64,000 nucleotides of DNA from an uncultured Chloroflexia bacterium (GCA_963809045.1 CAWEHW010000004.1:2221904-2285903), one strand, 5' to 3'. Positions 3,191-29,302 are shown, numbered from the stretch's first letter. The notes: generated from the sequence alone by a model not told the origin. A program made the numbers and translations.

Positions 3191-6100
3191 ATGACCGCTC
3201 GGCAGGCACGGGCCGCTCGCAGCGATCCGACGCCGGAGGCAAACGTGCGCGTGCTCCAGGACCGGATCGACGAGCTCGAGGCCGAGACCAAGGAGCGCGC
3301 GGCCGAGCTCGCGATCATCAACAGCGTTCAGCAGGGACTCGCCTCGAGGCTCGAGACCCAGGCGATGTACGACCTCGTCGGCGACAAGATCCGCGAGATC
3401 TTCGACGCCCAGGTCGTTGATATCGGCATCCTGGACCCAGCCGATGGCCTGATCCATTTTCCGTACACGATCGAACGTGGCGTGCGCTATCCGGACGAAC
3501 CGCTCGAGATCATCGGCTTCCGGAAGCACGTCCTCGAGACCGGCCAACCGCTGCTGATCGCCGGAAACACCAAGGAGGCCGCAGCGGCATACGGAAACCC
3601 GATCGTGCTCACGGGCGAGATGCCGCTCGCCAGCCTGTTCGTTCCCTTGATGACCGGCGAGGTTGGAAGCGGCGTCATTTCGCTCCAGAACATCGACCGG
3701 GCGGATGCCTTCAGCGACGACGACGTCCACCTCCTTTCGACGCTTGCCTCCAGCCTGAGCGTCGCCCTCGAGAACGTCCGCCTGTTCGAGGAGACGAAGC
3801 GGCTGCTCACGGAGACCGAGCAGCGGAGCGCCGAGCTGGCGGTCATCAACGAGATCGGCACGGCCCTCGCCCAGCAGCTCGACTTCCAGGCAATCCTTGC
3901 GCTGGTTGGCGATCGGGCCGCGGAAGCGCTGGGCGCCCGCGGGCTATCGATCTGCCTCATGGATCCCAGGACCTCGGATCTGACGTTCATGTACTGGGTG
4001 GACGAGGGTGTCCGGAACCGCGAAAAGGAAGGTTTCGTCCTCCGCGATCCCCTGTCGGCGGAGATCCTCAGCTCTGGTCTCCCGGTGCGGATCGGGTCGG
4101 CCGAGGAGGCCGCCGCTCGGGGAACCCCCTTTGCGATCGGCGGCACCGCGTCCTACCTAGGCGTGCCCATTCCCGCCGGCGATCGGGCCATCGGCGTCTT
4201 CGCCCTCGGGACGCGCGATCAGGACGCCTACACCGAAGCCGACGAGCGACTGCTGATGACCCTCGCCGCGAGCACCGGTGTCGCGCTCGAGAACGCGAGG
4301 CTGTTCGACGAGACGAAGCGACTGCTCGCAGAGACCAACGAGCGCGCCGCCGAGCTCGCGATCATCAACAGCATCCAGCAGGGCCTCGCGTCAGAGCTCG
4401 ACATGCAGGCGATGTACGACTTGGTCGGCGACAAGATCGCGGAGATCTTCGATGCGCAGGTGGTCGACATCGCGCTCTACGACCTCGCGGCGGGCACCGC
4501 CCGATATCCGTACACCCTCGAACGCGGGATCCGCCATCCAGACGTGCCGGGCCCCATCGGCGCGATGGGACGGGCCGTCCTGGAGGCACGCCAGTCATTC
4601 CTGATCACGGACTTCGATGCCTGGACCCGCGACCACGGTGTGGAGCTCGTCGCCGACGTCGGAGAGAAGCCGCGATCTGGCCTGTTTGCTCCGCTCAGTG
4701 TGGCCGGAGAGGTCCGGGGTCACATTTCGCTCCAGAACGTCGACCATACGGACGCCTTCAACGAGTCGGACCTGCGCCTCCTGACGACACTGGCATCGAG
4801 CCTGAGTGTCGCGCTCGAGAACGCCCGCCTGGTGGACGAAACGCGGCAGCGAGCCGCCGAGCTGGCGATCGTCAACGACGTCGGGCAGGCGGTCGCGTCG
4901 CAGCTGGACCTCGATCGCCTGATCCAGCTGACGGGCGAGCAGCTGCGAACCACGTTCCGTGCCGACATCGTCTACGTCGCGTTGCTCAACCAGACGATCG
5001 GGATGATCGACTTCCCGTACCGGATCGAACGCGGCAAGCCGGCGCCGCGGGCGCCGCTGCCACTCGGCGAAGGTCTGACCTCGCAGATCCTGCTGTCGCG
5101 GGAGCCGTTGCTCCTCAACCGCGCGGACCAGTTCGAGGTCCTGGAGAAACAGGGCGTTGGCACGACGGTCCGCTCGTATCTTGGCGTGCCGATTGTCATC
5201 GGGGACGAGGCGATCGGCGTGGTCAGCGTCCAGAGCATCGACGAGGCCGGGCGGTTCGGCGACGCGGAGACCCGGCTCCTGCTCACGATCGCAGCGAACG
5301 TAGCCGCCGCAATCCGCAACGCGCAGCTCTACCGCGAGGCGCAGGGCCGGGCGCGCGAGATGGCCGCCCTTGCCGAGATGGGTCGTGAGATCTCCGCAAC
5401 GCTGGATCTCGAGGGACTGCTCCAACGGATAGCGGAACGCGCCCAGACCCTGCTCGAAGCCGGCACCAGCGCGGTCTTCCTGCCGGACCCCGACGGCACG
5501 TTCCGCGCCATCGCGGCGATCGGAGAGATCGCCGACATCATCAAATCCGATCGGATCGCTCTCGGCGAGGGAATCATCGGCACGCTCGCCGTCGAGGGTC
5601 GCGCCGAGGTCGTCAACGACGCGACGCACGACCCACGGAGCGTATCGATCGCCGGGTCCGATGACGACGACACCGAGGAACGGCTGATGGTCGCGCCGTT
5701 GGTCGGACGCCAGGGGGTCATCGGGATGATGGCGGTGTGGCGCTCGGCCACCCGCCCGCCGTTCACGCCCGGCGAGCTCGACTTCCTCGTCGGCTTGTCC
5801 CAGCAGGCCGCGATCGCCATCGACAACGCTCGCCTCTTCGCGGAAGCGAACGAGTCGCGCCTGGCGGCCGACGCGGCGAACCAGGCGAAAAGCGCATTCC
5901 TCGCGGCGATGAGCCACGAGATCAGGACCCCGATGAACGCGATCATCGGGATGAGCGGCCTGTTGATCGACACGCCAATGAACGAGGAGCAGCGCGACTA
6001 CGCGGAGACGATCCGGACGTCCGGCGACGCACTCCTGACGATCATCAACGACATCCTCGATTTCTCGAAGATCGAAGCCGGACGGGTGGACCTGCTGAAC

Positions 6101-7504
6101 GAACCCTTCGAGCTCGCGGCTTGTGTCGAGAGCGCCCTCGACCTGATGGCGCCGTCGGTCGCCAAGAGACGTCTCGAGCTCGCCTACTCGGTCGACAGCG
6201 AGCTGCCGGATGGGATCGTGGGCGACATCGGGCGCCTGCGCCAGATCCTGCTGAACCTCCTCTCGAACGCCGTCAAGTTCACCGAGCGCGGCGAGATCGT
6301 GGTGACCGTCGCGGCGCGTCGGCTGACGGAGCCGAAGCGTGGCCCGAGCCGATGGGCGATCTCGGTCACCGTGCGCGACACCGGCATCGGCATCCCACCC
6401 GACCGGATGGACCGGCTCTTCCAGTCCTTCAGCCAGGCCGACGCCTCGATTTCGCGGCGGTTTGGCGGCACCGGCCTGGGCCTGGCGATCAGCCGTCGCC
6501 TCGCGGAGGCGATGGACGGCGCGCTCACCGCCGAGAGCGGTGGCGTCCCGGGCGAGGGTGCAACATTCCACCTCGTCATCGAGGCCGACGAAGCCCCTGC
6601 CGCGACGCTGCCGTCCCGAATGCGTGCTCCGGCACTGGCCCAGGACCTGATGGCCGGACGATTGGCGCTCGTCGTGGACGACAACGCCACGAACCGACGA
6701 ATCCTGGCCGCCCAACTCGAGCGTTGGGGCTTACGGGTGCGAGCCACGGCATCGGCCACGGAAGCGTTGGGCTGGACTCAGGCTGATGAGCCGTTCGATC
6801 TTGCCTTGCTGGACATGGTCATGCCCGACATGGATGGCCTCGCGCTCGCGAACGCCATCCGTGCCGTCCGCCCGACCCGAGCGCCGCGGATCGTGCTCAT
6901 TTCGTCCTTCGGCTTCCACGACCAGAAGCAGCCCGGTATCGATGCGTTCCTCACCAAGCCGGTCAAGCCGTCGGCGCTGTACGACACCCTCGCGACTGTC
7001 CTGGCCGGCGATGGAGCGACGGCAAGCCGCCGGGAGCGGGCGCCGAGCGGCGACGAGATTGATCCTGACCTCGGCGCTCGCTACCCGCTGCGGATCCTGC
7101 TCGCCGAGGACAACCCGGTGAACCAGAAGCTCGCGCTGCGACTCCTGACGCGCATGGGCTACGCGGCCGATGTAGCCAACAACGGTCTCGAGGCCATCGC
7201 CGCCGCCGAATCGGGAACGTACGACCTGGTCCTGATGGACGTCCAGATGCCGGAGATGGACGGCCTCGAAGCCACCCGACAGATTCGCAGCCACCGGAAG
7301 GCGCGCCCAGTCCGAATCGTCGCCATGACGGCCAACGCGCTGGCAGAGGATCGGGAGGCCTGCTTCGCGGCCGGCATGGACGATTACCTCAGCAAGCCAA
7401 TTCGGGTGAACGAGCTGATGGCCGCGCTCGTTCGATCGGCGGAGAGCCTGGCGAATGGCGTCGCACCGACATCGCGTCGAAAGCGATTGAACGCCCATGC
7501 CTGA
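3191..7504 (+). CDS. multi-GAF hybrid sensor histidine kinase with two receiver domains
   Basis: ATG 3191 lies behind a GGAGGG RBS (the track ORF opens at GTG 3164). Five GAF-like modules, each introduced by a ...AELA(I/V)(I/V)N... linker. H-box [15 protein letters not shown] boxes [28 protein letters not shown]. Two REC domains ([22 protein letters not shown]; [22 protein letters not shown]). Confidence 0.9.
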
Positions 7505-7868
7505 TGCCGCCGACGGCGTCCTCGACGGGCCGACCCTCGAGGCGCTCTTCGAAAGCGTCGGCGACGATTCCGAGTTCCTCGCCGAGCTGATTGACACGTA
7601 CGTCGCGGATGCGCCTGCGCAGGTCGCTTCGTTGCGCGCAGCGCTCGAGGCCGGGGACGTCGAAGCCCTCGTTCGACCAGCGCACACCCTCAAGTCGTCG
7701 AGTGCCAGTCTCGGCGCCCTGGGCCTTGCCGAGCAATGCCGGCAACTGGAGCACGCCGCGCGCGATGGATCGCTGGGTGGCGCAGCGGACGCGGTCGAGG
7801 CGATCGCCGCGGAGGTCGACCGCGTCGCCACGGCCCTGGAAGAGACGAAGCGGTCATTCGCGGCATGA
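7497..7868 (+). CDS. Hpt (histidine phosphotransfer) domain protein
   Basis: 123 aa with the [12 protein letters not shown] phospho-His motif. Its start overlaps the kinase stop by 8 nt (translational coupling). Confidence 0.85.
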
Positions 7869-8998
7869 CCGGCGGCCGGGTCCTGGTCGTGGAGGACGCG
7901 ATCGTCAACCGCAAGCTCATCGAGCGGCTCCTTCGCGAACAGGGTCACACCGTCATCGCAGCCGGCGATGGGTTCGAAGCGCTCGAGGCACTGAGCGGCG
8001 ATGGCGAGCCGCCGTTCGACGTGGTGCTCCTCGACCTGGTGATGCCCGGCCTCGATGGCTACACGACCCTGGAGCGGATGAAAGCCGACCCTCGGCTGGC
8101 GCATCTCCCGGTCATCGTCATCAGCGCCGTCGAGGAGCTTGATTCGGTCGTCCGATGCATCGAGCTCGGCGCCCTCGACTACCTGCCCAAGCCGGTGGAT
8201 CCGGCGATCCTGCGGGCTCGGCTGAACGCGGCGCTGTCCGCCAAGCGCCTGCACGACCTGGAAGTCGAAACGGCAGCGAGGCAGGCCGAGCTCCTGCGCA
8301 CGATCGAACGCCAGAAGGACGAGTTGAGCCGCTTCCTGTCGCCACAGGTCGCGGCTCTCGTATCCAGCCCGGAGGGGGCGCAGCTCCTCGCCGGTCATCG
8401 GCGGGAGGCAACCACGCTGTTCCTCGACCTCCGGGGGTTCACCTCATTCAGCGAGGCGGCCGATCCCGAGGAGGTGCTGGGCGTCCTGCGCGAGTACCAC
8501 GCAGCGATGGGTCGGCTCATCGTCGAACACGGCGGGACGCTGGAGCACTTCGCCGGCGACGGGATGATGGTCTTCTTCAACGACCCCGTCCTACAGGAGG
8601 ATCACGAACTGCGGGCCGTCCGCATGGCCGTCGCGATGCGCGAGCGCTTCGCGGAGCTCGCGAGCGCATGGGAGTCGCGCGGCCACAAGCTTGGCTTCGG
8701 CGTTGGGATCGCGACCGGCTTCGCGACGCTCGGGCGCATCGGGTTCGAGGGTCGCTACGACTACGGCATGGTCGGGATGGCCGTGATCGTCGCCTCGCGT
8801 CTGAGTTCAGCCGCGGAAGCCGGGCAGATCCTGCTCGCGCCGCGATCGCATGCAGCCGTCGAGAACCTCGTCACGGTCGAGCCAATCGGGGAGATCCAGC
8901 TCAAGGGCATGAGCCACCCGATCGCGGCGGTCAATGTGCTTGGGCTGCGAGGGGCCGGGGACGCCGACGTGAGGAGGGCGACAGAGGCAAGGGCGTAG
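7865..8998 (+). CDS. response-regulator receiver / class III nucleotide cyclase fusion
   Basis: ATG 7865 overlaps the Hpt stop (ATGA). REC motifs VLVVEDAIVNRKL, LLDLVMPGLDG, LPKP. Coiled linker, then cyclase core FLDLRGFT...HFAGDGMMVFF...FGVGIATG...VIVASRL. Confidence 0.85.
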   Translation: MTGGRVLVVEDAIVNRKLIERLLREQGHTVIAAGDGFEALEALSGDGEPPFDVVLLDLVMPGLDGYTTLERMKADPRLAHLPVIVISAVEELDSVVRCIELGALDYLPKPVDPAILRARLNAALSAKRLHDLEVETAARQAELLRTIERQKDELSRFLSPQVAALVSSPEGAQLLAGHRREATTLFLDLRGFTSFSEAADPEEVLGVLREYHAAMGRLIVEHGGTLEHFAGDGMMVFFNDPVLQEDHELRAVRMAVAMRERFAELASAWESRGHKLGFGVGIATGFATLGRIGFEGRYDYGMVGMAVIVASRLSSAAEAGQILLAPRSHAAVENLVTVEPIGEIQLKGMSHPIAAVNVLGLRGAGDADVRRATEARA

Positions 8999-9064: not shown

Positions 9065-10741
9065 ATGCCCGCTGAATTCATCTACACGACCTACCGTCTG
9101 GCGCGGCACTACCCGCCCGACCGAACCGTCCTCGAGAACATCTCGCTGTCGTTCTATCCGGGCGCCAAGATCGGCGTCATCGGGCCGAATGGCGCCGGCA
9201 AGTCGAGCCTGCTGCGGATCATGGCCGGGCTCGACGACGGGTTCAACGGCGAGGCGCGGCTCACCCCGGGCTTCACGGTCGGCTTCCTGAGCCAGGAGCC
9301 GGAGCTCGATCCCACCAAGGACGTCAAGGGCAACGTGCTCGACGGCGTCCGCGAGGTCCAGACGCTCATGGACCAGTACACCGCCGTCATGGCCAAGTGG
9401 GCCGAGCCCGACGCCGACTACGACGCGATCGGCAAGGAGCAGGCCGCGCTCGAGGACAAGATCAACGCGGCCGACGCCTGGAACCTCGAACGCAACGTCG
9501 ACATCGCGATGGACGCGCTGCGTTGCCCGCCCGACGACGCCGACGTCACGAAGATCTCCGGCGGCGAGAAGCGACGCGTGGCGCTCGCCCGGTTGCTCCT
9601 CCGCCACCCCGACCTGCTGCTGCTGGACGAGCCGACCAACCACCTCGATGCCGAGTCCGTCTTCTGGCTCGAGCGGTTCCTGCAGGAGTATTCGGGTACC
9701 GTCGTCGCGATCACCCACGACCGGTACTTCCTCGACAACGTGGCGCAGTGGATCCTCGAGCTCGACCGCGGGCGTGGGATCCCGTTCGAGGGCAACTACT
9801 CGAGCTGGCTGGAGCAGAAGCTCGAGCGGATGGGTCGCGAGCAGAAGACCGAGGACGCCCGGCAGCGAACCCTCGCCCGCGAGCTCGAATGGGTCCGCCT
9901 CTCCCCACGCGCCCGCCAGGCCAAGGGCAAGGCACGTCTCGGTGCCTACGAAAAGCTGCTGGCCGAGGCGACCGCGACCAAGGACTCGACGCGCGAGCTC
10001 GAGATCGCGATCCCGCCCGGTCCACGCCTCGGCGACTCGGTCATCGAGGTCAAGAACCTGTCGAAGGCATTCGGCGACAAGGTCCTGATCGATGGCCTGT
10101 CGTTCTCGCTGCCGAAGGCCGGCATCGTCGGCATCATCGGACCGAACGGTGCCGGCAAGACGACCCTGTTCCGGATGATCGTCGGGGACGAGCCCGTCGA
10201 CCGCGGGACGATCGAGATCGGCGACACCGTCCAGCTGAGCTACGTCGACCAGAGCCGCGACGACCTGTCGCCCGAGAAGTCCGTGTTCGACGAGATCAGT
10301 GGCGGTGACGAGTTCATCAAGGTCGGCAACCGCGAGCTCCCCGCGCGCGCCTACGTGAGCAGCTTCAACTTCCGGGGCACGGACCAGCAGAAGCCGGTCG
10401 GCAAGCTGTCAGGCGGCGAGCGCAACCGGGTCCACCTGGCCAAGCTGCTCCGCTCGGGCGGCAACGTGCTGCTACTTGACGAACCGACCAACGACCTCGA
10501 CGTCGACACGCTCCGGGCGCTCGAAGCGGGACTCGAGTCATTCCCAGGCTGCGCGGTGGTGATCAGCCACGATCGCTGGTTCCTCGACCGGATCGCCACC
10601 CACGTCCTGGCGTTCGAAGGCGACAGCGTCGTCCGCTGGTTCGAGGGCAACTTCACCGAATACGAGGAGTTCCGGCACCGGGAGTTGGGCGTCGCCGCCG
10701 ACCAGCCGCATCGGATCCGGTACAAGAAGCTCGCGAGCTAG
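9065..10741 (+). CDS. ettA: energy-dependent translational throttle protein EttA (ABC-F ATPase)
   Basis: Two ABC cassettes (GPNGAGKS twice; signatures ISGGEKRR and LSGGERNR; Walker B LLLDEPTN twice). EttA-like N-terminus MPAEFIYTTYRLARHYPP. 558 aa. Confidence 0.9.
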   Translation: MPAEFIYTTYRLARHYPPDRTVLENISLSFYPGAKIGVIGPNGAGKSSLLRIMAGLDDGFNGEARLTPGFTVGFLSQEPELDPTKDVKGNVLDGVREVQTLMDQYTAVMAKWAEPDADYDAIGKEQAALEDKINAADAWNLERNVDIAMDALRCPPDDADVTKISGGEKRRVALARLLLRHPDLLLLDEPTNHLDAESVFWLERFLQEYSGTVVAITHDRYFLDNVAQWILELDRGRGIPFEGNYSSWLEQKLERMGREQKTEDARQRTLARELEWVRLSPRARQAKGKARLGAYEKLLAEATATKDSTRELEIAIPPGPRLGDSVIEVKNLSKAFGDKVLIDGLSFSLPKAGIVGIIGPNGAGKTTLFRMIVGDEPVDRGTIEIGDTVQLSYVDQSRDDLSPEKSVFDEISGGDEFIKVGNRELPARAYVSSFNFRGTDQQKPVGKLSGGERNRVHLAKLLRSGGNVLLLDEPTNDLDVDTLRALEAGLESFPGCAVVISHDRWFLDRIATHVLAFEGDSVVRWFEGNFTEYEEFRHRELGVAADQPHRIRYKKLAS

Positions 10742-11014: not shown

Positions 11015-11434
11015 CTACTCGGCGCCGATCGGTTCGAGCGTGATCACCGGGATCTTTCGGCCGGCCTTTGCGGGGTAGGCAGCGAAGTCGGGCCGAGACT
11101 CGACGAGGGCGTCCCAGAGCCGCCGGTATTCGGCCTCATCGGTGACAACCTGCGCTCGCGCCTGGAACACTCTTGCCCGGGCCTCCACCTTGACCTCTGG
11201 GTTCTTCGTGACGTTGCGAACCCAGGCCGGGTCCTTGGGTGCGCCGCTGGCCGTGCCCGCGATGACGTACTTCTCGCCATCGCGCACGAACGACAGGATC
11301 GCCTCGCGCGGCTCGCCAGTGCGAGCTCCGGTGGAGGTCATGATCATGTGGGGCTTGCCCGCGAGCGGGCCCGAGGAGATTTCGCCGTCGCCTGACCGAA
11401 GGTCGGCCATGAGCATTCGAGTCCAGTCAGCCAT
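11015..11434 (-). CDS. deazaflavin (F420)-dependent nitroreductase family protein (DDN-like)
   Basis: Start at MADWTRML (ATG 11434, GGAAGGAG RBS). MIMTSTGARTGEPREAILSFVRDGEKYVIAGTASGAPKDPAWVRNV...PEV pattern typical of the split-barrel DDN/PF04075 family. Confidence 0.8.
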   Translation of the reverse strand: MADWTRMLMADLRSGDGEISSGPLAGKPHMIMTSTGARTGEPREAILSFVRDGEKYVIAGTASGAPKDPAWVRNVTKNPEVKVEARARVFQARAQVVTDEAEYRRLWDALVESRPDFAAYPAKAGRKIPVITLEPIGAE

Positions 11435-18839: not shown

Positions 18840-21539
18840 TCAGGTTGCCGGAATGACCGCCTCCGAGCCAGTGCCGGACCGAGCCTTGAACCGCGGGATC
18901 GCTTCCTGGACGAGGAACTCGAGGATGGCGTCCGTGTTCATGGAGGCTCCCAGGCGGACGTGTTCCGCGAATTCCGGCTTCTGCGCGTCCGCGCGCATGG
19001 CCTGGATCACGGTTCCCAGACCCAGCCAATCGCTGTCGACATCGAGGGGCGGCTGCACCCCATACCTTCGACCGTGCGCCCCGTAGGCGGCCGCGAGCGT
19101 GAGGGCCTCGGCTGGCAGCCCGGCCACGTACAGCAGCGCGGCCGAGGCCTGCAGGCTCAAAGTGATCGAGGCGACGTCGCCCATCGCATGGGAAATGAGC
19201 AATCCACGCATGCCCATGTCGACGGCCCCACCGAGATCGCCCTTTGCAAACGCGACGCCGCCAAGCGCGGTGGTTGCCAAGGCGATGTAGTACGCATCGC
19301 CCGCAGCTTCCGACTTGGGCAACGTGTCGCGTGCGATTCGCTCGGCCTCTGCGATATTTCCCTGGGCCATGAGGGCAAACGCTTCCGTCCAGGCAACGCG
19401 CGTCACGAGTTGCTCGTCCCCCACCCTGCGAGCGAGCATGGCTGCCTCTGCCCGAATGCGCGACACCGCCTCCGGATCCGGGTCCGTGACGAAGCGCGTA
19501 TGCGCCAGGTTGAACAGCGCTTCGGCGAGACCCTGGTCGTCTCCAAGCTGGCGCGCCATGTCCACTTGAGACTGGTACAGCACGTCCGCGGCCGGTACAT
19601 CGCCGCCCCACCAGGCCAGCCCGCCTGCGGCCTCGAGCCCACGCATCCGCCATCCGGTCGCGGCGTCGGCACCCGGCATCGCCAGGACCTGGGCAGCTCG
19701 ATCGCGTCCCTCGGCGACATGGCCGCGGAACTGCCAGTACCGCCAGAGAGCTGCCAGCAGCCGGTGGGCGATCTCGGCCTCGCCGGTCTCGAGCGCCCAG
19801 GCCATGGCGCCGCGCATGTTGTCTCGCTCCACGACCAGGCGATCGAGCCACGGGACCTGGTCCTTGCCGGGCATGTGCCTGGCGGCTTCCTCGGTGAAGG
19901 CCAGGTAGGCGGTCGCGTGGCGGCGCTGGATCGTTTCGCGCTCCTCGGTCTCGGCCAGCCGCGCGGAGGCAAACATCCGGATCGTTTCAAGGAGCCGGAA
20001 CCGCGGCACGTCGGGTCCGGCCATCGACTGGATGAGACTGTGGTCGGCGAGGGTGGTCAATCCTTCGATGACGTCGACGCCGAGGCCTCCGTCCAATGCA
20101 CCGACCGCCTCGCCCTCCTCCAGCCGGAACCCGCCGGCGAACACCGAGAGGCGAGCGAGCAGACGCTGCGACGGCGCATCGAGCAGGTCGTAACTCCACG
20201 CGATCGCCTGCTCGAGTGTCTGCTGTCGCGCCGGCAGGTCTCTGGACTTGCCACCCGGCACATCCAGCTGCTTGCGCAGGCGCTCCGCGAGCGCCCGAGG
20301 CGGGAACATGCCGACCCGGGACGCCGCAAGCTCGATCCCGAGGGGCAGGCCATCGAGCCGCTGGCAGATCTCTGCGACGGCCGCCGTGTCCTCGACCGAG
20401 AGCGAGAACCCGGGCTTCACGCGGCCGGCTCGCTCGACGAACAGGCGCACCGATTCGCTCTCGAGCGCGTCGTCGGTCCGGTCGGACAGGTCGGGCACGC
20501 CCAGCGGCGCGACGGGATATTCCTGCTCGACCGAGAGTCGGAGCGGCGCCCGGCTCGTCACCAGCACGTGCAGCCGGGGCGCCGCCTGGAGGAGCTCGCC
20601 GATCCGCGGCGCCGCGTCGATGACCTGCTCGAAGTTGTCGAGCACCAGCAGCGTCTCGCGGTCGGCCAGGTAGGCGGCGAGGCGGTCGGCGGGTGTCGTC
20701 CCCGGCGATTCCACCAGCGAGAAGCTCGACGCGATCGCCGCCATGACCAGCTCCGGATCGCGAACCGCGTCGAGGGTGACGAGCCACGCCCCGTCCTCGA
20801 ACTGGCCGGCCACTCGTCGCGCGAGCTCGATCGCCAGCCGCGTCTTGCCCGTGCCACCGGGGCCGGTGAGTGTGACCAGCCGCTTCTCCGGCACGAGCGA
20901 GGCCAGCTCGACCAGCTCCGACACGCGGCCGATGAAGCTCGTGAGGTGGTCCGGGAGATTGCCGATGGGTCGATCGATCGGGCGCAGCGGCGGGAACTCG
21001 GAGCGCACGCCATCGATGACGAGCTGGTGGAGGCGCTCGGGCCGGGCCAGGTCCTTGAGCTGGAACTCGCCGAGGGGCTTGAGCGACGCGTCCGCCGGGA
21101 GCGCCCCCTCGACCAGGGCGCGGCTGGCGTCCGACAGCAGCACCTGGCCGCCGTGCGCGAGCTGCGCGATGCGGGCGGCCCGGTTGACGTCGACGCTGAC
21201 GTAGTCGTCCCCGCCGAGGGTGCCGATCCCCGTGTGCAGCCCCATCCGGACCCTGACCGGTGCGTCCGTGACCCAGGTGGCCTCGGCGAGCGCGCGCTGG
21301 GCCCACGCGGCGGCCGACACGGCGGCGGGCGCCTCCCGGAACATCACCAGGAACGAGTCGCCCTGGGTCCCCCGCTCCACCCCGCCGTGTGCCGAGTAGG
21401 CCTCGCGGAGGATGGCGTTGTGCTGGTCGAGGACCTGCGTGAAGACCGCCGGACCGAGATCCTGGACAAGCCGCGTCGAGCCCTCCATGTCCGAGAACAG
21501 GAAGGTCACGGTTCCGGTGGGCAGCATCCGATCGGTCAT
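18840..21539 (-). CDS. class III cyclase / P-loop NTPase / TPR multidomain signalling protein
   Basis: Start at ATG 21539 (MTDRMLPTGTVTFLFSDMEGSTRL). Cyclase core, then Walker A (LTGPGGTGKTRLA) and Walker B-like LLVLDNFEQV. Long helical-repeat C-terminus. No LuxR HTH at the end. Confidence 0.85.
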   Translation of the reverse strand: MTDRMLPTGTVTFLFSDMEGSTRLVQDLGPAVFTQVLDQHNAILREAYSAHGGVERGTQGDSFLVMFREAPAAVSAAAWAQRALAEATWVTDAPVRVRMGLHTGIGTLGGDDYVSVDVNRAARIAQLAHGGQVLLSDASRALVEGALPADASLKPLGEFQLKDLARPERLHQLVIDGVRSEFPPLRPIDRPIGNLPDHLTSFIGRVSELVELASLVPEKRLVTLTGPGGTGKTRLAIELARRVAGQFEDGAWLVTLDAVRDPELVMAAIASSFSLVESPGTTPADRLAAYLADRETLLVLDNFEQVIDAAPRIGELLQAAPRLHVLVTSRAPLRLSVEQEYPVAPLGVPDLSDRTDDALESESVRLFVERAGRVKPGFSLSVEDTAAVAEICQRLDGLPLGIELAASRVGMFPPRALAERLRKQLDVPGGKSRDLPARQQTLEQAIAWSYDLLDAPSQRLLARLSVFAGGFRLEEGEAVGALDGGLGVDVIEGLTTLADHSLIQSMAGPDVPRFRLLETIRMFASARLAETEERETIQRRHATAYLAFTEEAARHMPGKDQVPWLDRLVVERDNMRGAMAWALETGEAEIAHRLLAALWRYWQFRGHVAEGRDRAAQVLAMPGADAATGWRMRGLEAAGGLAWWGGDVPAADVLYQSQVDMARQLGDDQGLAEALFNLAHTRFVTDPDPEAVSRIRAEAAMLARRVGDEQLVTRVAWTEAFALMAQGNIAEAERIARDTLPKSEAAGDAYYIALATTALGGVAFAKGDLGGAVDMGMRGLLISHAMGDVASITLSLQASAALLYVAGLPAEALTLAAAYGAHGRRYGVQPPLDVDSDWLGLGTVIQAMRADAQKPEFAEHVRLGASMNTDAILEFLVQEAIPRFKARSGTGSEAVIPAT

Positions 21540-21629
21540 TGGCTCGCAGCATACGGCGAGCGGAACTCGGTCAACCTGTCGAGCCTGCGGCAACAACGTC
21601 GCCAATGAGCTGGCGGCGGCAGACAATTC

Positions 21630-22545
21630 TTAGCTTGCCGCTTGCCTGAACAATTCGTACCGGCGCTCGAGGCGTGCTGGATCAGGAAGATTGATGGCGC
21701 GACTTGGCAGGTGGATCAGCTGGTCATGGATCTGTTGGAGACCCACCACCAACATCTGTCCGTCAAATTCCTGGAGAACTGATGGTCGGACCTCGATAAT
21801 GTAATCGGGTCGGATTGCAAAGAAGTGCCGATCGAACGCGGCGTGATGCAGTTTGCAAAGTGCAATTCCATTGCTGACTACCGGCTCGCCCTCGGCATCA
21901 CGATCCGGAGTGATGTGTGCCGCATCCAGCAGTTCGACATGTTGCAGCCGACAAAGCGCGCACTTCTCCGCGTACGCCCGAAATCACACGCTCTCGAAAC
22001 GCGACTTGGTGGAGTCGACGGCGGAATGTCGCAGTGACGTAGGCGCGACGTGGTTCCGCCATGTCCTCCCCTGCCAAAACAGGTTCCGAGCTCTGGCGCA
22101 CAGAAGCGAACAGATCGTCAACTTGGACGGAGAAGCGAAGCCGCTCTGGATAATCCCCGACGATGAATGCCGGGTAGGCAGCAACGTAGCTCCCGGGCTC
22201 AATCGCGTAGAAGTACACGATCGGAACACGCTGCGCCATTACTTGGCGCAATCCGCGATTGTCTCGATGTGCGACATCGACTCCTCGATACGCGTAACTC
22301 AGAGCGCCGGTGGCAGGATCCGATCTGTCGTCATACGAACTGTCAACCGTCGTGGTGATCGAGAGGGGAAGCTCGCACGCTGCTGGCTTCCAGATACCCG
22401 ATGGTCCAACCAGTGGGATTCGCCGGCCATCGAGGGTGAACGCTTCGAGCGCAGTCCTTGACATGGCCTCGCCGAATTCCTCCCGTTGCTGCGTTAGCCA
22501 GGCAAACACCCGAGACCTGACCTCACGATCCGCGTCTCCGATCAA
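21630..22545 (-). pseudogene. reader-domain + HNH (HNH_2-type) nuclease, disrupted by a 1-nt frameshift
   Basis: The N-terminal ORF 21898..22545 ends ...HQVAFRERVISGVRGEV.... Shifting one frame at the C-run 21977-21979 gives AYAEKCALCRLQHVELLDAAHITPDRDAEGEPVVSNGIALCKLHHAAFDRHFFAIRPDY...RQAAS-stop (TAA at 21630-21632). I translated this by hand from the reverse complement. Confidence 0.7.
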
Positions 22546-22557
22546 TGCCGATCCACC

Positions 22558-24480
22558 CTAATCGGACCCATAGGACCTGGGAGGTTCAGCGGCGCGCTTA
22601 GATGCGACTTGACTTCGCTCAATGCGGCTTAGGACAAAATCCCTCGTCGGTCCGTCCATGAAGTAGACGTAGCAGCCGCGGAGACCGCGAGTGAGCAGGA
22701 CCCGATATGTGCTCTTGACGAACTCCCGGAACTCCGCGTCCGTGACGCCGCTGCGGACGACCCGGTCGTGCGACTGGTCCCGTTGGCCGACCCACCCCCC
22801 ATCCATCGGCCGGTAAACCAGGTCAGGACCGACGATCACCCCCACGTAGTCGAACTCGAAGCCCTGTGCCGTGTACACGCAGCCGACCTGGTCGATCCCC
22901 TCCTTCGCACTCGCCCAGAAGTCGGACTTCGGGATGCCGGGACCCAGCCGCCCGACGCCATCCCTGGCGTTCCAGGGCATCGACCAGTCCGCCACCCGCA
23001 CGTCAGGTTCGAGCTGACCGGCGGCGTCGGGATCTGACCATGGCCAGCAGAAGCCGGCGACGAGCCGGGCGGTGGCGCCCTCCCCTGCCCTCACTCGAAT
23101 CACCCGCTCGAGCTCGCGGACGTCACCGACGATCTGGAAGTCGAACTCATCGTCCATCGACCACAAGACCTGCGGCGTCCGCGCGAGCTCAAGGGTGTTG
23201 TCGACCCACTGGATGAACGAATCGGAGCCGTTCGCGCGGAACTGGGCTTGAAGCTTGAAGTCGCGGACTTCGATCGATCGCTTGGCGGCCTCCTCGCGGA
23301 TGAGGTCTGTACTGCCGACCTCGCCGGGGCGCACGACCTGCAGATCATCGATGAAGAAGACCGCGACCCGGCTAGCGTCCAGGATGTCGTCGATCTGGGC
23401 CTTGCCGGTTCGAGCCTTGGCCGGGGTGAAGCGGCTCGTGCTAATCGTCCGGATTCGGTGGGCCTCGTCTAGGACTACGACGTCGAGCTTGTCGGTAACG
23501 GTCGCAGTGTCTCGGAAGTACTTGAAAAGCGCCGCCGCACGTCCACCGACGAGCTTGCGGAGGTTCTCAGTGAACGCCTTCGAGCCCGTCAGGTGGAGCG
23601 TGCTGAGACCGCGCTCGGCCAGTTCGGCGACGAGATTCAAAGCGATGACCGACTTGCCGGTGCCCGGTCCACCCTCGACCAGGAAAACTGCCGATTGCTG
23701 ATTCTGGCCGGCCGACCGAACCGAATCCATCACCGCGTTGTAAGCGACGAGCTGTTCGTCGAGCAGCGTGAACGCCGGTTGGCGACGGATGACCGCAGCG
23801 ACGTGGTCGAGCAGTCGCTTGTGCGGCTTGAAAGCGGTCGCGGCCACTCGCTCGAGGATCGCGCCTTCGTCCGGACCGCTAACCCGATGGTCTAGGAAGG
23901 TGGCGAACGCATCACGCTGGTCACCGGCGAACGACGGGCTCGTGGCGAGGAGCGTCGCGAAGTCTGCATGGTAGAGCGGCGACTTCGGGTCGTATTGGGC
24001 GTAATGGAGGTACGCGCAGGCGTCGAGGGCGATCGCACCGTCGGAGAAGGCTGGATGCGTGTCGATCAGGTAGCGCTGGTATTGGGCGACCTGGCGCGAT
24101 GGGTGGAGGTGATCGCGCGGACGGCCACCGAAGTCGACCGTAACGCAATCCGTGATGTTCGACCGACCGACTTCGGTCCATTGCTTTAGCTCGACGATGA
24201 CAGCGGAATCGCCGGTCGCAGGATTCGAACCCGTTATGAGTACGTCGAGGCGCTTCGATGAGAGCGGCAGCTTGAGTTCGACCAGGATGCCTTGGTCGGT
24301 TAGGTCCGCGAGCTGAAGAACCGTCGCCATAGCGCTCAGGGAGTTGCGCCAGGACGTAACTTCCGAAGGCGCAGGCCGATAGCGGAACTCGTCGAAGAAG
24401 CGATCGGACAGCAGGTTCGCCAAACGAGCCTGGGTGGCATCGGCGATGAATTGGTGCGTTGACCCCTGGTAGAGGTGCAC
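22558..24480 (-). CDS. DUF2075-type protein: N-terminal PD-(D/E)xK-like nuclease motif + SF1-like P-loop helicase
   Basis: 640 aa. RLD79..VIVE97-L-K99 (coordinates 24184-24246). Walker A GGPGTGKS (23650-23671). Walker B VVVLDEAHR. C-terminal VYTAQGFEFDYVGVIVGPDL and YRVLLTRGLRGCYVYF motifs. Confidence 0.85.
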   Translation of the reverse strand: MHLYQGSTHQFIADATQARLANLLSDRFFDEFRYRPAPSEVTSWRNSLSAMATVLQLADLTDQGILVELKLPLSSKRLDVLITGSNPATGDSAVIVELKQWTEVGRSNITDCVTVDFGGRPRDHLHPSRQVAQYQRYLIDTHPAFSDGAIALDACAYLHYAQYDPKSPLYHADFATLLATSPSFAGDQRDAFATFLDHRVSGPDEGAILERVAATAFKPHKRLLDHVAAVIRRQPAFTLLDEQLVAYNAVMDSVRSAGQNQQSAVFLVEGGPGTGKSVIALNLVAELAERGLSTLHLTGSKAFTENLRKLVGGRAAALFKYFRDTATVTDKLDVVVLDEAHRIRTISTSRFTPAKARTGKAQIDDILDASRVAVFFIDDLQVVRPGEVGSTDLIREEAAKRSIEVRDFKLQAQFRANGSDSFIQWVDNTLELARTPQVLWSMDDEFDFQIVGDVRELERVIRVRAGEGATARLVAGFCWPWSDPDAAGQLEPDVRVADWSMPWNARDGVGRLGPGIPKSDFWASAKEGIDQVGCVYTAQGFEFDYVGVIVGPDLVYRPMDGGWVGQRDQSHDRVVRSGVTDAEFREFVKSTYRVLLTRGLRGCYVYFMDGPTRDFVLSRIERSQVASKRAAEPPRSYGSD

Positions 24481-24603: not shown

Positions 24604-24643
24604 TGTAGTCACCAACCGGCATTCACGTGATACCGTGACTACA
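24604..24643. promoter_or_regulatory. 9-bp inverted repeat TGTAGTCAC...GTGACTACA with central palindrome TCACGTGA, candidate TA operator
   Basis: Read directly. Arms at 24604-24612 and 24635-24643. Inner palindrome at 24623-24630. The right arm abuts the antitoxin ATG (24643). Confidence 0.4.
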
Positions 24644-24909
24644 TGGAAGTTGGTATCCGCGACCTGAAGGCACGACTGTCGGAACATCTCGAGCGGGTGG
24701 CGGGCGGCGAGACCATCACCGTCACGAGTCGCGGCCGGCGCGTTGCACAGATCGTCCCGTTGGTCGGGCGCGCCAACCTGGAGCGCGGCCTGGCCGAGGG
24801 TTGGCTCACCCGAAAGGTAGATCGAGTACCGGAGCCAGTTGCGCGTCAACGCCCCCGACCCGGCACGCCGACCACCACGGAGCTCATTTCGCGCGATCGG
24901 GATGCATGA
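24643..24909 (+). CDS. Phd/YefM-family type II antitoxin
   Basis: MEVGIRDLKARLSEHLERVAGGETITVTSRGRRVAQIVP is the Phd/YefM N-terminal pattern. Stop overlaps the PIN toxin start (ATGA). Confidence 0.8.
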   Translation: MEVGIRDLKARLSEHLERVAGGETITVTSRGRRVAQIVPLVGRANLERGLAEGWLTRKVDRVPEPVARQRPRPGTPTTTELISRDRDA

Positions 24910-25310
24910 CCGTCTACCTGGATAGCAGCGCGTTCGTCAAGCGCTACGTCGCCGAAGACGGGAGCGACAGGCTTGACGTCCTCTTGTCCAACGATCCCGA
25001 GTGGGTCACGGCCGGCCATACCCTCGTTGAGGTCGTCCTGGCCCTGCATCGGCGTCTCGGCGACACCGAGTGGATCGTCGCCAGGGACGCCTTCGAGCGC
25101 GACTGGGAGCGGTCCTACATCGTCTCGCTCGACGACGAGGCCTGTCGGCGAGCGGCTGAATTCGGCGTCGCGGCGGGCGCGCGGACACTCGACGCGCTGC
25201 ATCTGGCCGCTGCGGATCGCGTTGGCGGCAGGTCCATCCCGATCGTGACCTTTGACATCCGCCTCGGAGTGGCCGCGCGCGCCCTCGGTTTCAGCGTCAT
25301 CGGGGCGTGA
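24906..25310 (+). CDS. vapC: PIN-domain toxin VapC
   Basis: MTVYLDSSAFVKRYV..., ...TLVEVVLAL..., ...TLDALHLAAA..., ...IVTFDIRL: PIN acidic motifs. Confidence 0.85.
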   Translation: MTVYLDSSAFVKRYVAEDGSDRLDVLLSNDPEWVTAGHTLVEVVLALHRRLGDTEWIVARDAFERDWERSYIVSLDDEACRRAAEFGVAAGARTLDALHLAAADRVGGRSIPIVTFDIRLGVAARALGFSVIGA

Positions 25311-25385: not shown

Positions 25386-25796
25386 CTACTGCGACGGCCC
25401 CATCGGCGGCAGCCGAAACTCGCATTGCGGCCCAGGCGCCCTGGCGACGCGGCGGTCCAACGTGACCAGCGGCAGGTCCAATGCCTCCGCCAGGGCCACG
25501 TACCACGCGTCGTATGCGGTCAGGTTGTCGCGCAGCGTCCAGACGCGCTCTGCGTGCGGCTCATACGGGAAGAGGTCAACGCGAAGTCGGACGAGGTCAC
25601 CGTGCGCCAGGGCGGCCACGTCGACCGACAGGTCTCCTGCCCGCACAGCCCGCCGGAGCGTATTCGCAACCTCGACCGGCATCAGGTGCGGTGCCACGAG
25701 GTCCTCGCGAGCGAGCATCGATTCGGCCCATTCGCCATCTGATCCGCCATCGACCAGTGCGGCAACGATCACGCTCGCATCAACGACGACGGTCAC
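25386..25796 (-). CDS. vapC: PIN-domain toxin VapC
   Basis: MTVVVDASVIVAALV..., ...LMPVEVANTL..., ...AYDAWYVALAE..., ...LVTLDRRV: PIN motifs. 4-nt overlap with the upstream antitoxin. Confidence 0.85.
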   Translation of the reverse strand: MTVVVDASVIVAALVDGGSDGEWAESMLAREDLVAPHLMPVEVANTLRRAVRAGDLSVDVAALAHGDLVRLRVDLFPYEPHAERVWTLRDNLTAYDAWYVALAEALDLPLVTLDRRVARAPGPQCEFRLPPMGPSQ

Positions 25797-26026
25797 CTCC
25801 GATCGGCGTCCCGGTACTCGAGAATCCGTTCGGCTGGGAGCCTGGATGACGTTGCACGGCTTCGCGAGCGTGCCCCCGCGAGAACATCCCCCACGGAGGG
25901 TTTCCGCGCAAGCTCGATCAGCTCCGCACGCAAATGCTCCTGGAGCGACCGACCGACCCGCGCAGCGCGGGCAGCGAGTTCGGCGCGCACAGGCTCGGGA
26001 ACGTTTCGAATGGTGATGGACGGCAT
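25793..26026 (-). CDS. vapB: type II antitoxin (FitA/VapB-like, Arc/RHH type)
   Basis: MPSITIRNVPEPVRAELAARAARVGRSLQEHLRAELIELA is the typical plasmid-stability/VapB N-terminus. 77 aa. Confidence 0.75.
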   Translation of the reverse strand: MPSITIRNVPEPVRAELAARAARVGRSLQEHLRAELIELARKPSVGDVLAGARSRSRATSSRLPAERILEYRDADRR

Positions 26027-27682: not shown

Positions 27683-29302
27683 ATGACACTCAACCGCCCA
27701 ACACGAAGCCGACCTAGCCTGTCCGGGCCACTCCGCATCGGCCTGCTGTCGCCGCCCATGCTCCCCGTGCCGCCGCTGAAGTACGCGGGAACTGAGCGGA
27801 TTGTCGCTGCGCTCGCGACGGGCCTCCACGAGCGTGGCCACGCGGTGACGCTCTTTGCACCGGGCGATTCAAAGGCTCCGGTGGAGCTGGTTCCGACGGT
27901 TCCGCGCAGCCTGTGGTCCACGGGCTACCGCGGCGACATCTCGTCCTACATGAACGTGACGCTGGCCAAGGCCTGGGCCCAGCACGATCGATTCGATGTC
28001 ATCCATTCGCACATCGAGGCGCTCGGGTTCCTCTTTGCCCGGCTCTGCCCTACCCCGGTCGTGTCGACCCTGCACGGGCGCCTTGACACGTCGGGCGTCC
28101 CGGACCTCATCGACGAGTTCTCGGACATCCCGCTGGTGGCCATCAGCGCGAGTCAGCGTCGGTGGTCTCCCAACGCCAACTGGGTCGGAACCATCCACCA
28201 CGGGCTCCCGCTGGCAGGAGCGCCGTTCGAGGCCGCGCCCGGCACGTACCTGGCCTTCATAGGCCGGATCGCGCCGGAGAAGGGCATCGGCGATGCCATC
28301 GCGCTTGCGCGGGCGACCGGCCTGCCACTGCGGATCGGGGCGAAGGTGTACGACCGCGGCGAACGAGAGCTGTTCGACTCGGTCGTCGCTCCGGCCATCG
28401 CGGAGGGCAGCATCGAGTTCCTGGGCGAGGTCAACGCCGCGGAACGCGACGCCCTGCTCGCCGGCGCCGTGGCGACGGTGATGCTTGGCGCCTGGCCCGA
28501 GCCGTTCGGGCTGGTGGCCATCGAATTGATGGCGACCGGCACGCCCGTCATCGCCAGGCGGGCCGGCGCCCTGCCCGAGATCATCGAGCACCATCGCACG
28601 GGCTTCCTCGTCGACGATCTGAGCGAAGCCATCCTGGCGGTCGCTCGTGCCGGGTCGCTCGATCGCGCCGCGATTCGCGAGACGGCGCTGACCCGGTTCT
28701 CCGTCGATCGGATGGTTGACGAGTACGAGGGTGTGTACCAGCGCTTGATCGAGCAGCCGAGCGGCGCCGCGTTCGTCGGGCGCGGCCGATGGGGTATTCA
28801 CGATCGAGCCTCGACGTGTCCGACCGGCGGTGCCGTCGTCTGCGATCGTCGAGGAGGCGCCCGTGGTGGCGGCAATCGCCGGCGGCATCCGGCGGGTAGG
28901 CGCCCGCCGTCAGGCATGACCCTCGAGACGTATCGTCGGAAGCGACGGTTCAACGAGACACCGGAGCCGCCAGGCGACCGGGGACCTGGCCGATCCCACG
29001 CTGCGAGGACGAGCGGGCGGTACGTCGTCCAGCGCCATCGCGCACGGCGCCTCCACTACGACTTCCGCCTCGAGCTTGGTGGCGTCCTTGTCTCATGGGC
29101 GGTTCCGCGCGGTCCCACGCTCGATCCGGCGCAACGTCGCCTCGCGGTTCGCGTGGAGGACCACCCACTCGCGTACTTCGACTTCGAAGGGGTCATCCCT
29201 CGCGCCCAGTACGGTGCCGGTGACGTGATCGTTTGGGATTGGGGCCAGTGGACGGCCGATCCCGCACACGCGGAACGCTTCGCTCGCGATCGAGGCCGGT
29301 GA
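27683..29302 (+). CDS. family-4 glycosyltransferase ORF that reads in frame into a LigD-PE-like segment
   Basis: The first ~355 aa are GT4-like ([36 protein letters not shown]..., [26 protein letters not shown]). No stop follows. After ~50 Arg/Gly-rich codons comes the PE-like sequence starting at ATG 28916. The ORF ends at 29302. Confidence 0.6.

Follow-up and report, generated by a model that had tools for sequence, protein, structure and literature searches.

A DUF2075 gene and an HNH_2 nuclease gene form a clade-specific operon in a narrow lineage of Chloroflexota

Two genes located on the minus strand at positions 21630-24480 of a 64,000-nucleotide (nt) stretch of an uncultured Chloroflexia genome (GCA_963809045.1 CAWEHW010000004.1:2221904-2285903; the whole stretch is called the window in the following) raise the question of whether they constitute a conserved two-gene system. 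The upstream gene (gene 1) encodes a putative nuclease-helicase with a DUF2075 domain, the downstream gene (gene 2) an HNH_2 nuclease. An initial annotation of the locus had considered the pair a possible two-component restriction-like module, an inference that was not sustained since co-occurrence of the two families is largely lacking and was found to be genuine in the nearest clade alone. What the locus shows is an operon specific to one clade, within a narrow Chloroflexota lineage, and not a conserved two-gene system.

The distribution of both families was surveyed. For the HNH family of gene 2, a DUF2075 gene was sought within 8 kb at 83 loci, 62 of which have an upstream flank of at least 2 kb; the loci come from 80 species genomes that represent many phyla and from three contigs. 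Such a gene was found at three of the loci (L066, L070 and, as a fragment, L079) and was absent from the other 80. The reciprocal survey comprised 80 metagenome loci whose DUF2075 genes are 46-66% identical to gene 1, and at none of them did a member of the window's HNH family lie beside the DUF2075 gene. Other HNH_2 nuclease genes were present at 13 of 84 DUF2075 loci (about 15%), on either side and on either strand. The commonest direct neighbour was a MazG-like gene, directly adjacent at about 41 of the 80 loci. Defence-type neighbours of the homologues elsewhere comprise toxin-antitoxin, NERD, methylase, PIN and reverse-transcriptase genes.

In the four nearest lineages, the window included, the pair is present without exception and on the same strand. 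The three relatives that possess the pair together with an intact HNH gene (the P0122 contig, the P0123 contig and L168) show 91%, 89% and 87% identity to gene 1, respectively, and the two genes are separated by 12 nt in the window and in P0122, by 36 nt in P0123 and by 22 nt in L168. The last of these loci is syntenic with the window across the pair, the adjacent cyclase gene and RibD_C, at 79-86% DNA identity. Relatives of gene 1 with 85%, 84%, 83% and 79% identity stand without a gene of the window's HNH family. Downstream of them, a reverse transcriptase gene, a hemerythrin gene, nothing close by and a gene for a PIN protein were detected, respectively, and in the three relatives for which DNA is at hand (84%, 83% and 79%) the homology to the window ends at the borders of gene 1. 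A further relative with 86% identity is uninformative on the pairing because its contig ends about 100 nt after the gene.

A looser tendency of DUF2075 genes to adjoin modification-dependent nucleases is real and has already been published for the McaZI group (Lutz et al. 2019, PMC6765204). As in the window, the gene of a nuclease of this (here predicted) kind adjoins a DUF2075 NTPase gene there, and the authors suggested a joint assay of such neighbours. The nuclease of the McaZI group, however, is a DUF3427-DUF3883 PD-(D/E)xK fusion and that of the window an HNH_2 enzyme. The repeated occurrence of DUF2075 (Schlafen-type) nuclease-helicases beside modification-dependent nucleases and the MazG-like gene may reflect functional partnerships.

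The statement of the initial annotation that both genes are of defence type agrees with their architecture, which is Nhi-like in gene 1 (10.1101/776245; 10.1101/2022.05.11.491447) and resembles that of type IV HNH enzymes in gene 2 (PMC6765204, PMC6212794). As far as can be judged now, known classes of defence genes would be extended by two members. Gene 1 had been read as a PD-(D/E)xK nuclease joined to a DUF2075 superfamily 1 (SF1) helicase, and this domain reading was supported, the nuclease part being a candidate. Residues 264-609 match PF09848 (SLFN-g3_helicase, formerly DUF2075) with an E-value of 2.9e-86. In an alignment of 18 homologues with 49-100% identity, the putative nuclease residues E68, D79 and E97-L98-K99 are invariant, as are the helicase motifs (Walker A G270-S277, D338-E339-A340-H341-R342, T537-E542 and T597-R598-G599). 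Residues 1-254 gave neither a Pfam family nor a PDB sequence match. A database look-up of the gene 1 product itself gave no record. The protein has more than 6600 homologues, most of them about 640 amino acids (aa) long, and the ratio of nonsynonymous to synonymous substitution rates (dN/dS) of gene 1, determined against the syntenic L168, is 0.09.

An N-terminal nuclease combined with DUF2075 is given by Bari et al. and Millman et al. as the architecture of Nhi and Nhi-like proteins, for which phage defence by a single gene has been shown experimentally (bioRxiv 10.1101/776245; 10.1101/2022.05.11.491447). Nhi itself is SERP2475 of S. epidermidis and works alone (10.1101/776245); the Nhi-like proteins were reported by Millman et al. 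2022. Because of its N-terminal nuclease motif followed by DUF2075, gene 1 was classified by sequence as Nhi-like in architecture, the nuclease fold being putative. Like Nhi and the Nhi-like proteins, it combines a PD-(D/E)xK-type motif and a DUF2075 (PF09848) helicase on a single polypeptide at least about 600 aa long, and its surroundings resemble a defence island. On the other hand, the similarity to Nhi is weak and confined to the first half of the helicase, the PADLOC model of Nhi aligning only to residues 243-424 (E 7.6e-13). The PADLOC matches of gene 1 are all distant. The best one is PDC-S41 (1e-17, in three stretches that include the N-terminus), which is itself a candidate only, and AbiO was matched at 5e-12. 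Unlike Nhi, gene 1 also shares its operon with an HNH nuclease gene downstream. A larger variant of 795 aa is encoded in L070 (4850-7237); near the C-terminus of this DUF2075 protein, residues 652-729 match the LexA-like domain Peptidase_S24 (E 2.7e-6).

For gene 2, the initial annotation had indicated a start 12 nt downstream of gene 1, a frame in need of repair and an HNH_2-type core, all of which were recovered. The gene starts with a TTG codon at 22545, 12 nt past the stop codon of gene 1. Its frame 0 terminates at a TGA codon (21898-21900) and the HNH core goes on in the next frame to a TAA codon (21630-21632). By alignment with seven homologous DNAs, exactly one surplus base was identified within the T-run at 21981-21983, the sequence at this site being GTGATTTCGG in the window and GTGA-TCCGG in the homologues. 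Removal of one base results in a protein of 304 aa that aligns from end to end with hundreds of homologues of the same length (66-84% identity) and matches PF13391 (HNH_2) at E 6.7e-11. This domain is present in 131 of 131 members of the gene 2 family. The residues C195, C198, H210, N225, C230, H233, H234 and D238 (numbering of the repaired protein), which comprise the zinc finger and the catalytic His/Asn/His, are invariant, and the PDB sequences that the HNH part matches best are the corresponding domains of TagI and VcaM4I, both of them modification-dependent enzymes. In L006, two open reading frames (ORFs; 9806-10291 and 11039-11407) downstream of a full-length HNH gene are about 80% identical to its C-terminal part and cover nothing else of it (residues 175-304 and 190-304, respectively); they are partial duplicates of the nuclease half.

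The frameshift is due either to a very recent inactivation of gene 2 or to a homopolymer sequencing error. Programmed frameshifting at ATTTCGG was rejected since the homologues have intact frames at this site; to our knowledge, this sequence is not among the known slippery sites. There is slightly less than an even chance that gene 2 is a decaying pseudogene and that only the nuclease-helicase is functional at this locus, the alternative state being an assembly error with both genes intact. The extra T breaks the frame ahead of all catalytic residues, and gene 2 has the lowest G+C content (0.58) and the lowest G+C content at third codon positions (GC3, about 0.61) of the region, both in favour of decay. 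However, the intact copy of the gene in L168 is also low in G+C (0.605), and the insertion lies within a homopolymer, where errors are typical of assemblies made from long reads. The 116 codons past the frameshift are open to the normal C-terminus of the family, every catalytic and zinc-binding residue has been kept, and the dN/dS against L168 is 0.076 past the frameshift, compared to 0.06 for the N-terminal part. Any inactivation must therefore be very recent. Both genes of the operon are under purifying selection. For the automated annotation of assembly GCA_963809045.1, the single-T frameshift calls for caution.

The N-terminal 150 residues of gene 2 did not match any Pfam family in the 131 members, and the reader domain was also analyzed at the level of its fold. 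An AlphaFold model of the repaired protein based on 22 close homologues only reached a predicted local distance difference test score (pLDDT) of 35.6. A third homologue search, which added a distant subgroup, gave 131 sequences and a model with a pLDDT of 81.4. In a Foldseek search of the PDB with this model, the 16 best matches were all SRA-domain proteins. The first match was TagI, an SRA-HNH enzyme (E 1.8e-3, 286 aligned columns spanning both domains), followed by KRYPTONITE, SUVH6, the isolated SRA domain of SUVH5 and ScoMcrA; for the SUVH5 domain, the template modelling (TM) score was 0.40-0.48 and the probability up to 0.94. Since the predicted structure fits SRA-domain proteins best and TagI above all, gene 2 seems to be a type IV enzyme of a divergent SRA-like-HNH kind and not a phosphorothioate reader. 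Type IV restriction enzymes include both SRA-HNH and EVE-HNH proteins (PMC6765204, PMC6212794). The earlier reading of the protein as a reader joined to an HNH_2 core was supported, and of the candidate folds that had been named for the reader (SBD, SRA and PUA/EVE) it was SRA that the fold search returned.

A candidate pocket is formed by Y71, D73 and Y84, which are invariant across 131 and 38 sequences; the domain also has the motifs GIWKP and HRDN. The three residues fall, by a weak HMMER alignment, on the pocket segment GGY-DD...Y-TG of TagI, whose pocket for the flipped base consists of Tyr55/Asp58/Tyr67 (PMC6212794). Such weak alignments (E 0.4-1.1) were obtained with profiles of gene 2 for the SRA pocket segments of the PDB sequences of TagI and SUVH4. 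Several observations weigh against an SRA-like reader. The Foldseek E-values are weak (1.8e-3 to 0.4) and the TM scores lie below 0.5. The presumptive pocket Asp is found at position Tyr+2 in gene 2 and at Tyr+3 in TagI and UHRF1. The Pfam family SAD_SRA was matched by none of the 131 members at E-values up to 10, and an hhalign comparison of the reader with the UHRF1 SRA domain was negative (probability 0.2). Judging from fold and motif, it is nevertheless likely that the reader is SRA-like at fold level.

With the SRA-HNH enzymes ScoA3IV/Sco5333, TbiR51I and TagI (PDB 6GHS), gene 2 has in common the order of an N-terminal reader, a helical linker and a C-terminal HNH_2 domain within about 300 aa, and a beta-beta-alpha-Me nuclease with a CxxC...CxxH zinc finger. 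TagI is both the best structural match over the two domains and the best PDB sequence match of the HNH part. What separates gene 2 from these enzymes is a reader that is recognised as SRA neither by Pfam SAD_SRA nor by hhalign, that has about 40 extra N-terminal residues (with a helix at 4-24) and that exhibits the family's own motifs GI(W/F)KP, (G)PY-D, Y-Y-RG-D, H-x-x-N and (Y/W)P. The HNH family comprises more than 6000 database matches in 1156 clusters at 50% identity, distributed over many phyla; it is very strongly conserved and, as far as we found, uncharacterised in the literature. If its reader is a divergent SRA domain, the family would constitute a sizeable unexplored pool of modification-dependent nucleases, which might be useful as epigenetic tools.

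That gene 2 instead reads phosphorothioate, as an enzyme with a sulfur-binding domain (SBD) and an HNH domain of the EcoWI/SprMcrA kind, is very improbable. In this case, H93-R94 and Y124-P125 would form the sulfur-binding pocket, which is reminiscent of the 'HR/HK' and 'YP' residues reported for sulfur recognition by SBDs (PMC7461809); the gene 2 family indeed carries HRDN and (Y/W)P motifs. R94 and Y124, however, vary in the wider family (HPDN, HWQN and WP variants). Similarly, gene 2 resembles the SBD-HNH enzymes (EcoWI, SprMcrA; NF045808) in size and in the order of an N-terminal reader and a C-terminal zinc-finger HNH domain, and NCBIfam NF045808, a model of 284 positions, was matched at E 4e-15. 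But the score was 55.7 bits where 180 would be needed to pass the cutoff, and the alignment is confined to profile positions 157-270, which belong to the HNH part. The reader is matched neither by this model nor by SBD structures; three profiles of the gene 2 family matched zero SBD chains in the PDB. SBD-SRA chains of ScoMcrA are among the Foldseek matches, but the matches above and around them are SRA-only domains such as that of SUVH5, which suggests that the element shared with ScoMcrA is its SRA domain. The idea of phosphorothioate reading, which had come from the HR and YP motifs, was rejected on the score against NF045808, the fold search and the motif variation.

How the two genes may act at this locus can be explained in different ways. 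With moderate confidence we favour the explanation that two autonomous DNA-targeting defence genes of known types have been joined in a clade-specific operon. By analogy with Nhi, the product of gene 1 alone would load on replication or recombination intermediates of an invader, unwind them by its ATP-driven SF1 helicase and degrade them. The product of gene 2, if in frame, may flip a modified cytosine (of the 5-methylcytosine or 5-hydroxymethylcytosine class) by means of its SRA-like domain into the Tyr/Asp/Tyr pocket. The zinc-finger HNH_2 domain would then cleave the DNA close to this site and, like TagI, would probably do so as a dimer. Such a TagI/ScoA3IV-like action is suggested by fold, motifs and family. 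Co-transcription of the genes could raise two complementary barriers. The tight spacing, the fact that all four nearest lineages have kept the pair, and the HNH_2 nucleases beside about 15% of the DUF2075 genes could reflect cooperation instead of simple coexistence. It is conceivable, though unlikely, that the proteins form a cooperative two-component ATP-dependent type IV module, in which the SRA-like-HNH protein reads modified DNA and the DUF2075 protein serves as motor and second nuclease. Such a module may loosely be likened to McrB/McrC or to the helicase part of SauUSI.

Cooperation would be in line with the shared strand and the short spacers (12-36 nt) found both in the window and in the three relatives closest to it, and with the retention of the pair under purifying selection since the split from L168. 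The presence of at least one HNH_2-type nuclease gene at 13 of 84 DUF2075 loci points in the same direction, but at those other loci the nuclease gene lies on either side and on either strand. In L066 and L070, a MazG-like gene, the DUF2075 gene, a gene of a second HNH_2 type and a member of the window's HNH family stand in a row; the two families are, however, mostly apart (together at 3 of 83 and at 0 of 80 loci), and the direct neighbour that DUF2075 genes most commonly have is MazG-like and not HNH. Close relatives of gene 1 are followed by unrelated genes (reverse transcriptase, PIN protein, hemerythrin). Although Lutz et al. (PMC6765204) proposed to test DUF2075 proteins together with adjacent modification-dependent enzymes, both TagI-type SRA-HNH enzymes and Nhi work alone (PMC6212794; 10.1101/776245). 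The distribution of neither family requires functional cooperation. More far-reaching, and quite improbable, is the idea that DUF2075 nuclease-helicases are a common ATP-driven hub for interchangeable accessory genes, the operon in the window being one case of modular, motor-assisted type IV restriction. The accessories would include PIN proteins, reverse transcriptases and MazG-like pyrophosphohydrolases as well as HNH_2 nucleases with differing readers of modified DNA, among them the SRA-like family of the window and two or more further types of N-terminus. If true, this would amount to an undescribed modular, motor-assisted type IV restriction system. The explanation by two autonomous genes is maintained here, and the features on which it is based are compiled in Table 1 together with their surroundings.

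Table 1. Features of the operon and of its surroundings (window coordinates)
Feature	Coordinates	Strand	Basis
Gene 1, intact (putative) nuclease-helicase, 640 aa	22558-24480	-	PD-(D/E)xK motif + DUF2075/SLFN-g3 SF1 helicase
Putative PD-(D/E)xK catalytic segment of gene 1, residues 68-99 (E68, D79, E97-x-K99)	24184-24279	-	Invariant residues
SF1 helicase/DUF2075 domain of gene 1, residues 264-609; Walker A GGPGTGKS, Walker B VLDEAHR	22654-23691	-	PF09848
Spacer between gene 1 and gene 2, 12 nt, with a GGTGGA Shine-Dalgarno-like stretch ahead of TTG	22546-22557	-	
Gene 2, putative SRA-like reader + HNH_2 nuclease, 304 aa once repaired, 1-nt insertion	21630-22545	-	PF13391, AlphaFold model
N-terminal reader domain of gene 2, about residues 1-150, probably SRA-like by fold	22096-22545	-	Foldseek, invariant residues
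Frameshift site, TTT run with one extra T	21981-21983	-	Alignment to homologous DNAs
HNH_2 beta-beta-alpha-Me core with CxxC...CxxH zinc finger, in the shifted frame	21831-21962	-	PF13391
Adenylate/guanylate cyclase-NB-ARC(STAND)-TPR protein, about 900-930 aa, downstream	18840-21626	-	Family scan of neighbours
Toxin-antitoxin pair, upstream context outside the operon	24643-25310	+	Phd/YefM-type antitoxin (PhdYeFM_antitox) 24643-24909; PIN toxin 24906-25310
Toxin-antitoxin pair, upstream context outside the operon	25386-26026	-	PIN toxin 25386-25796; FitA-like ribbon-helix-helix (RHH) antitoxin 25793-26026

The operon stands out by its base composition. The G+C figures that had been given for 60-nt samples were exactly reproduced on recomputation (0.517 at 21721-21840, 0.600 at 22561-22620 and 0.767 at 20101-20160). 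Over 21633-24480, the G+C content is 0.620, lower than at any other of the 612 positions of a 2.85-kb stretch slid along the window (mean 0.679, standard deviation 0.017). Within the operon, the GC3 of the HNH gene (about 0.61) differs from that of the DUF2075 gene (0.79), and a contrast in overall G+C is repeated in the syntenic L168 (0.605 for the HNH gene, 0.673 for the DUF2075 gene). The contrast between the two genes hints at separate origins. As the initial annotation had noted for the borders, there is no sign of an integrase or a tRNA: a tRNA was not found anywhere in the window, and ten neighbouring ORFs that were scanned for integrase families yielded zero matches. Direct or inverted repeats pointing to the border of a mobile element were not found in the flanks of the island, and scans for promoters and terminators gave signals no better than chance.

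Two VapBC-type loci, likewise mentioned before, are indeed present beyond gene 1. They consist of a Phd-type antitoxin with a PIN toxin and of a PIN toxin with a FitA-like RHH antitoxin, and both fit a type II VapBC-like layout, in which a small antitoxin gene overlaps or abuts the PIN toxin gene. On the other side, and likewise on the minus strand, the cyclase gene begins a few nt past the stop codon of the HNH gene. It has a host-like G+C content of 0.70 and is syntenic in L168 (5224-7914), with 79% DNA identity and a dN/dS of 0.21. Farther away, both a glycosyltransferase (residues 36-316) and a LigD 3'-phosphoesterase domain (450-527) are encoded by a single ORF of 539 aa (27683-29302, plus strand), the latter domain having a plausible start of its own. 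This ORF may represent two genes read through without a stop codon, or a second frame problem of the assembly.

Some neighbours of the two families at other loci are worth recording. The MazG-like gene (about 115 aa; PF12643, E 7.8e-17 for the L066 copy) usually lies immediately upstream of the DUF2075 gene at the approximately 41 of 80 loci mentioned above; examples among loci L084-L163 are L102 4654-4995, L128 781-1119 and L088 2368-2670. A full-text search of the literature for DUF2075 together with MazG found no paper. The MazG-like gene and DUF2075 may form a two-gene module. The window itself was searched for a MazG-like gene and for another HNH_2 gene, and neither was found. The four-gene row of L066 (2071-6335) and L070 (4488-9305) lies on one strand, in the order MazG-like, DUF2075 nuclease-helicase, second HNH_2 type and window's HNH family. 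The second HNH_2 type has the N-terminus KIWVAVTDKDWF..VNFWQP, for which no Pfam match was obtained. It adjoins the window's HNH family at 15 of 83 loci and is the sole real recurrent neighbour that emerged when all ORFs near this family were clustered, the bulk of the clusters being due to the HNH gene read in alternative frames.

The position downstream of the DUF2075 gene is occupied in various ways. On the P0126 contig (JGI 3300056388), the DUF2075 gene that is 85% identical to gene 1 (5001-6941) is followed, with an overlap of 4 nt, by the gene of a 369-aa reverse transcriptase (RVT_1, 6938-8047) and then by an ORF of 136 aa. A defence-associated reverse-transcriptase module may here take the place that the HNH gene has in the window. 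In L096 (4792-5799), L138 (2077-3015) and L157 (4238-5209), the genes directly downstream of DUF2075 homologues were judged by eye from their translations. They displayed, respectively, classical HNH motifs together with a HIT-like HxHxH, a PLD-like motif, and a third HNH_2 type with a differing N-terminus; the HNH_2 core of the L157 gene was confirmed by a match. The slot downstream of DUF2075 homologues often contains nucleases of various kinds.

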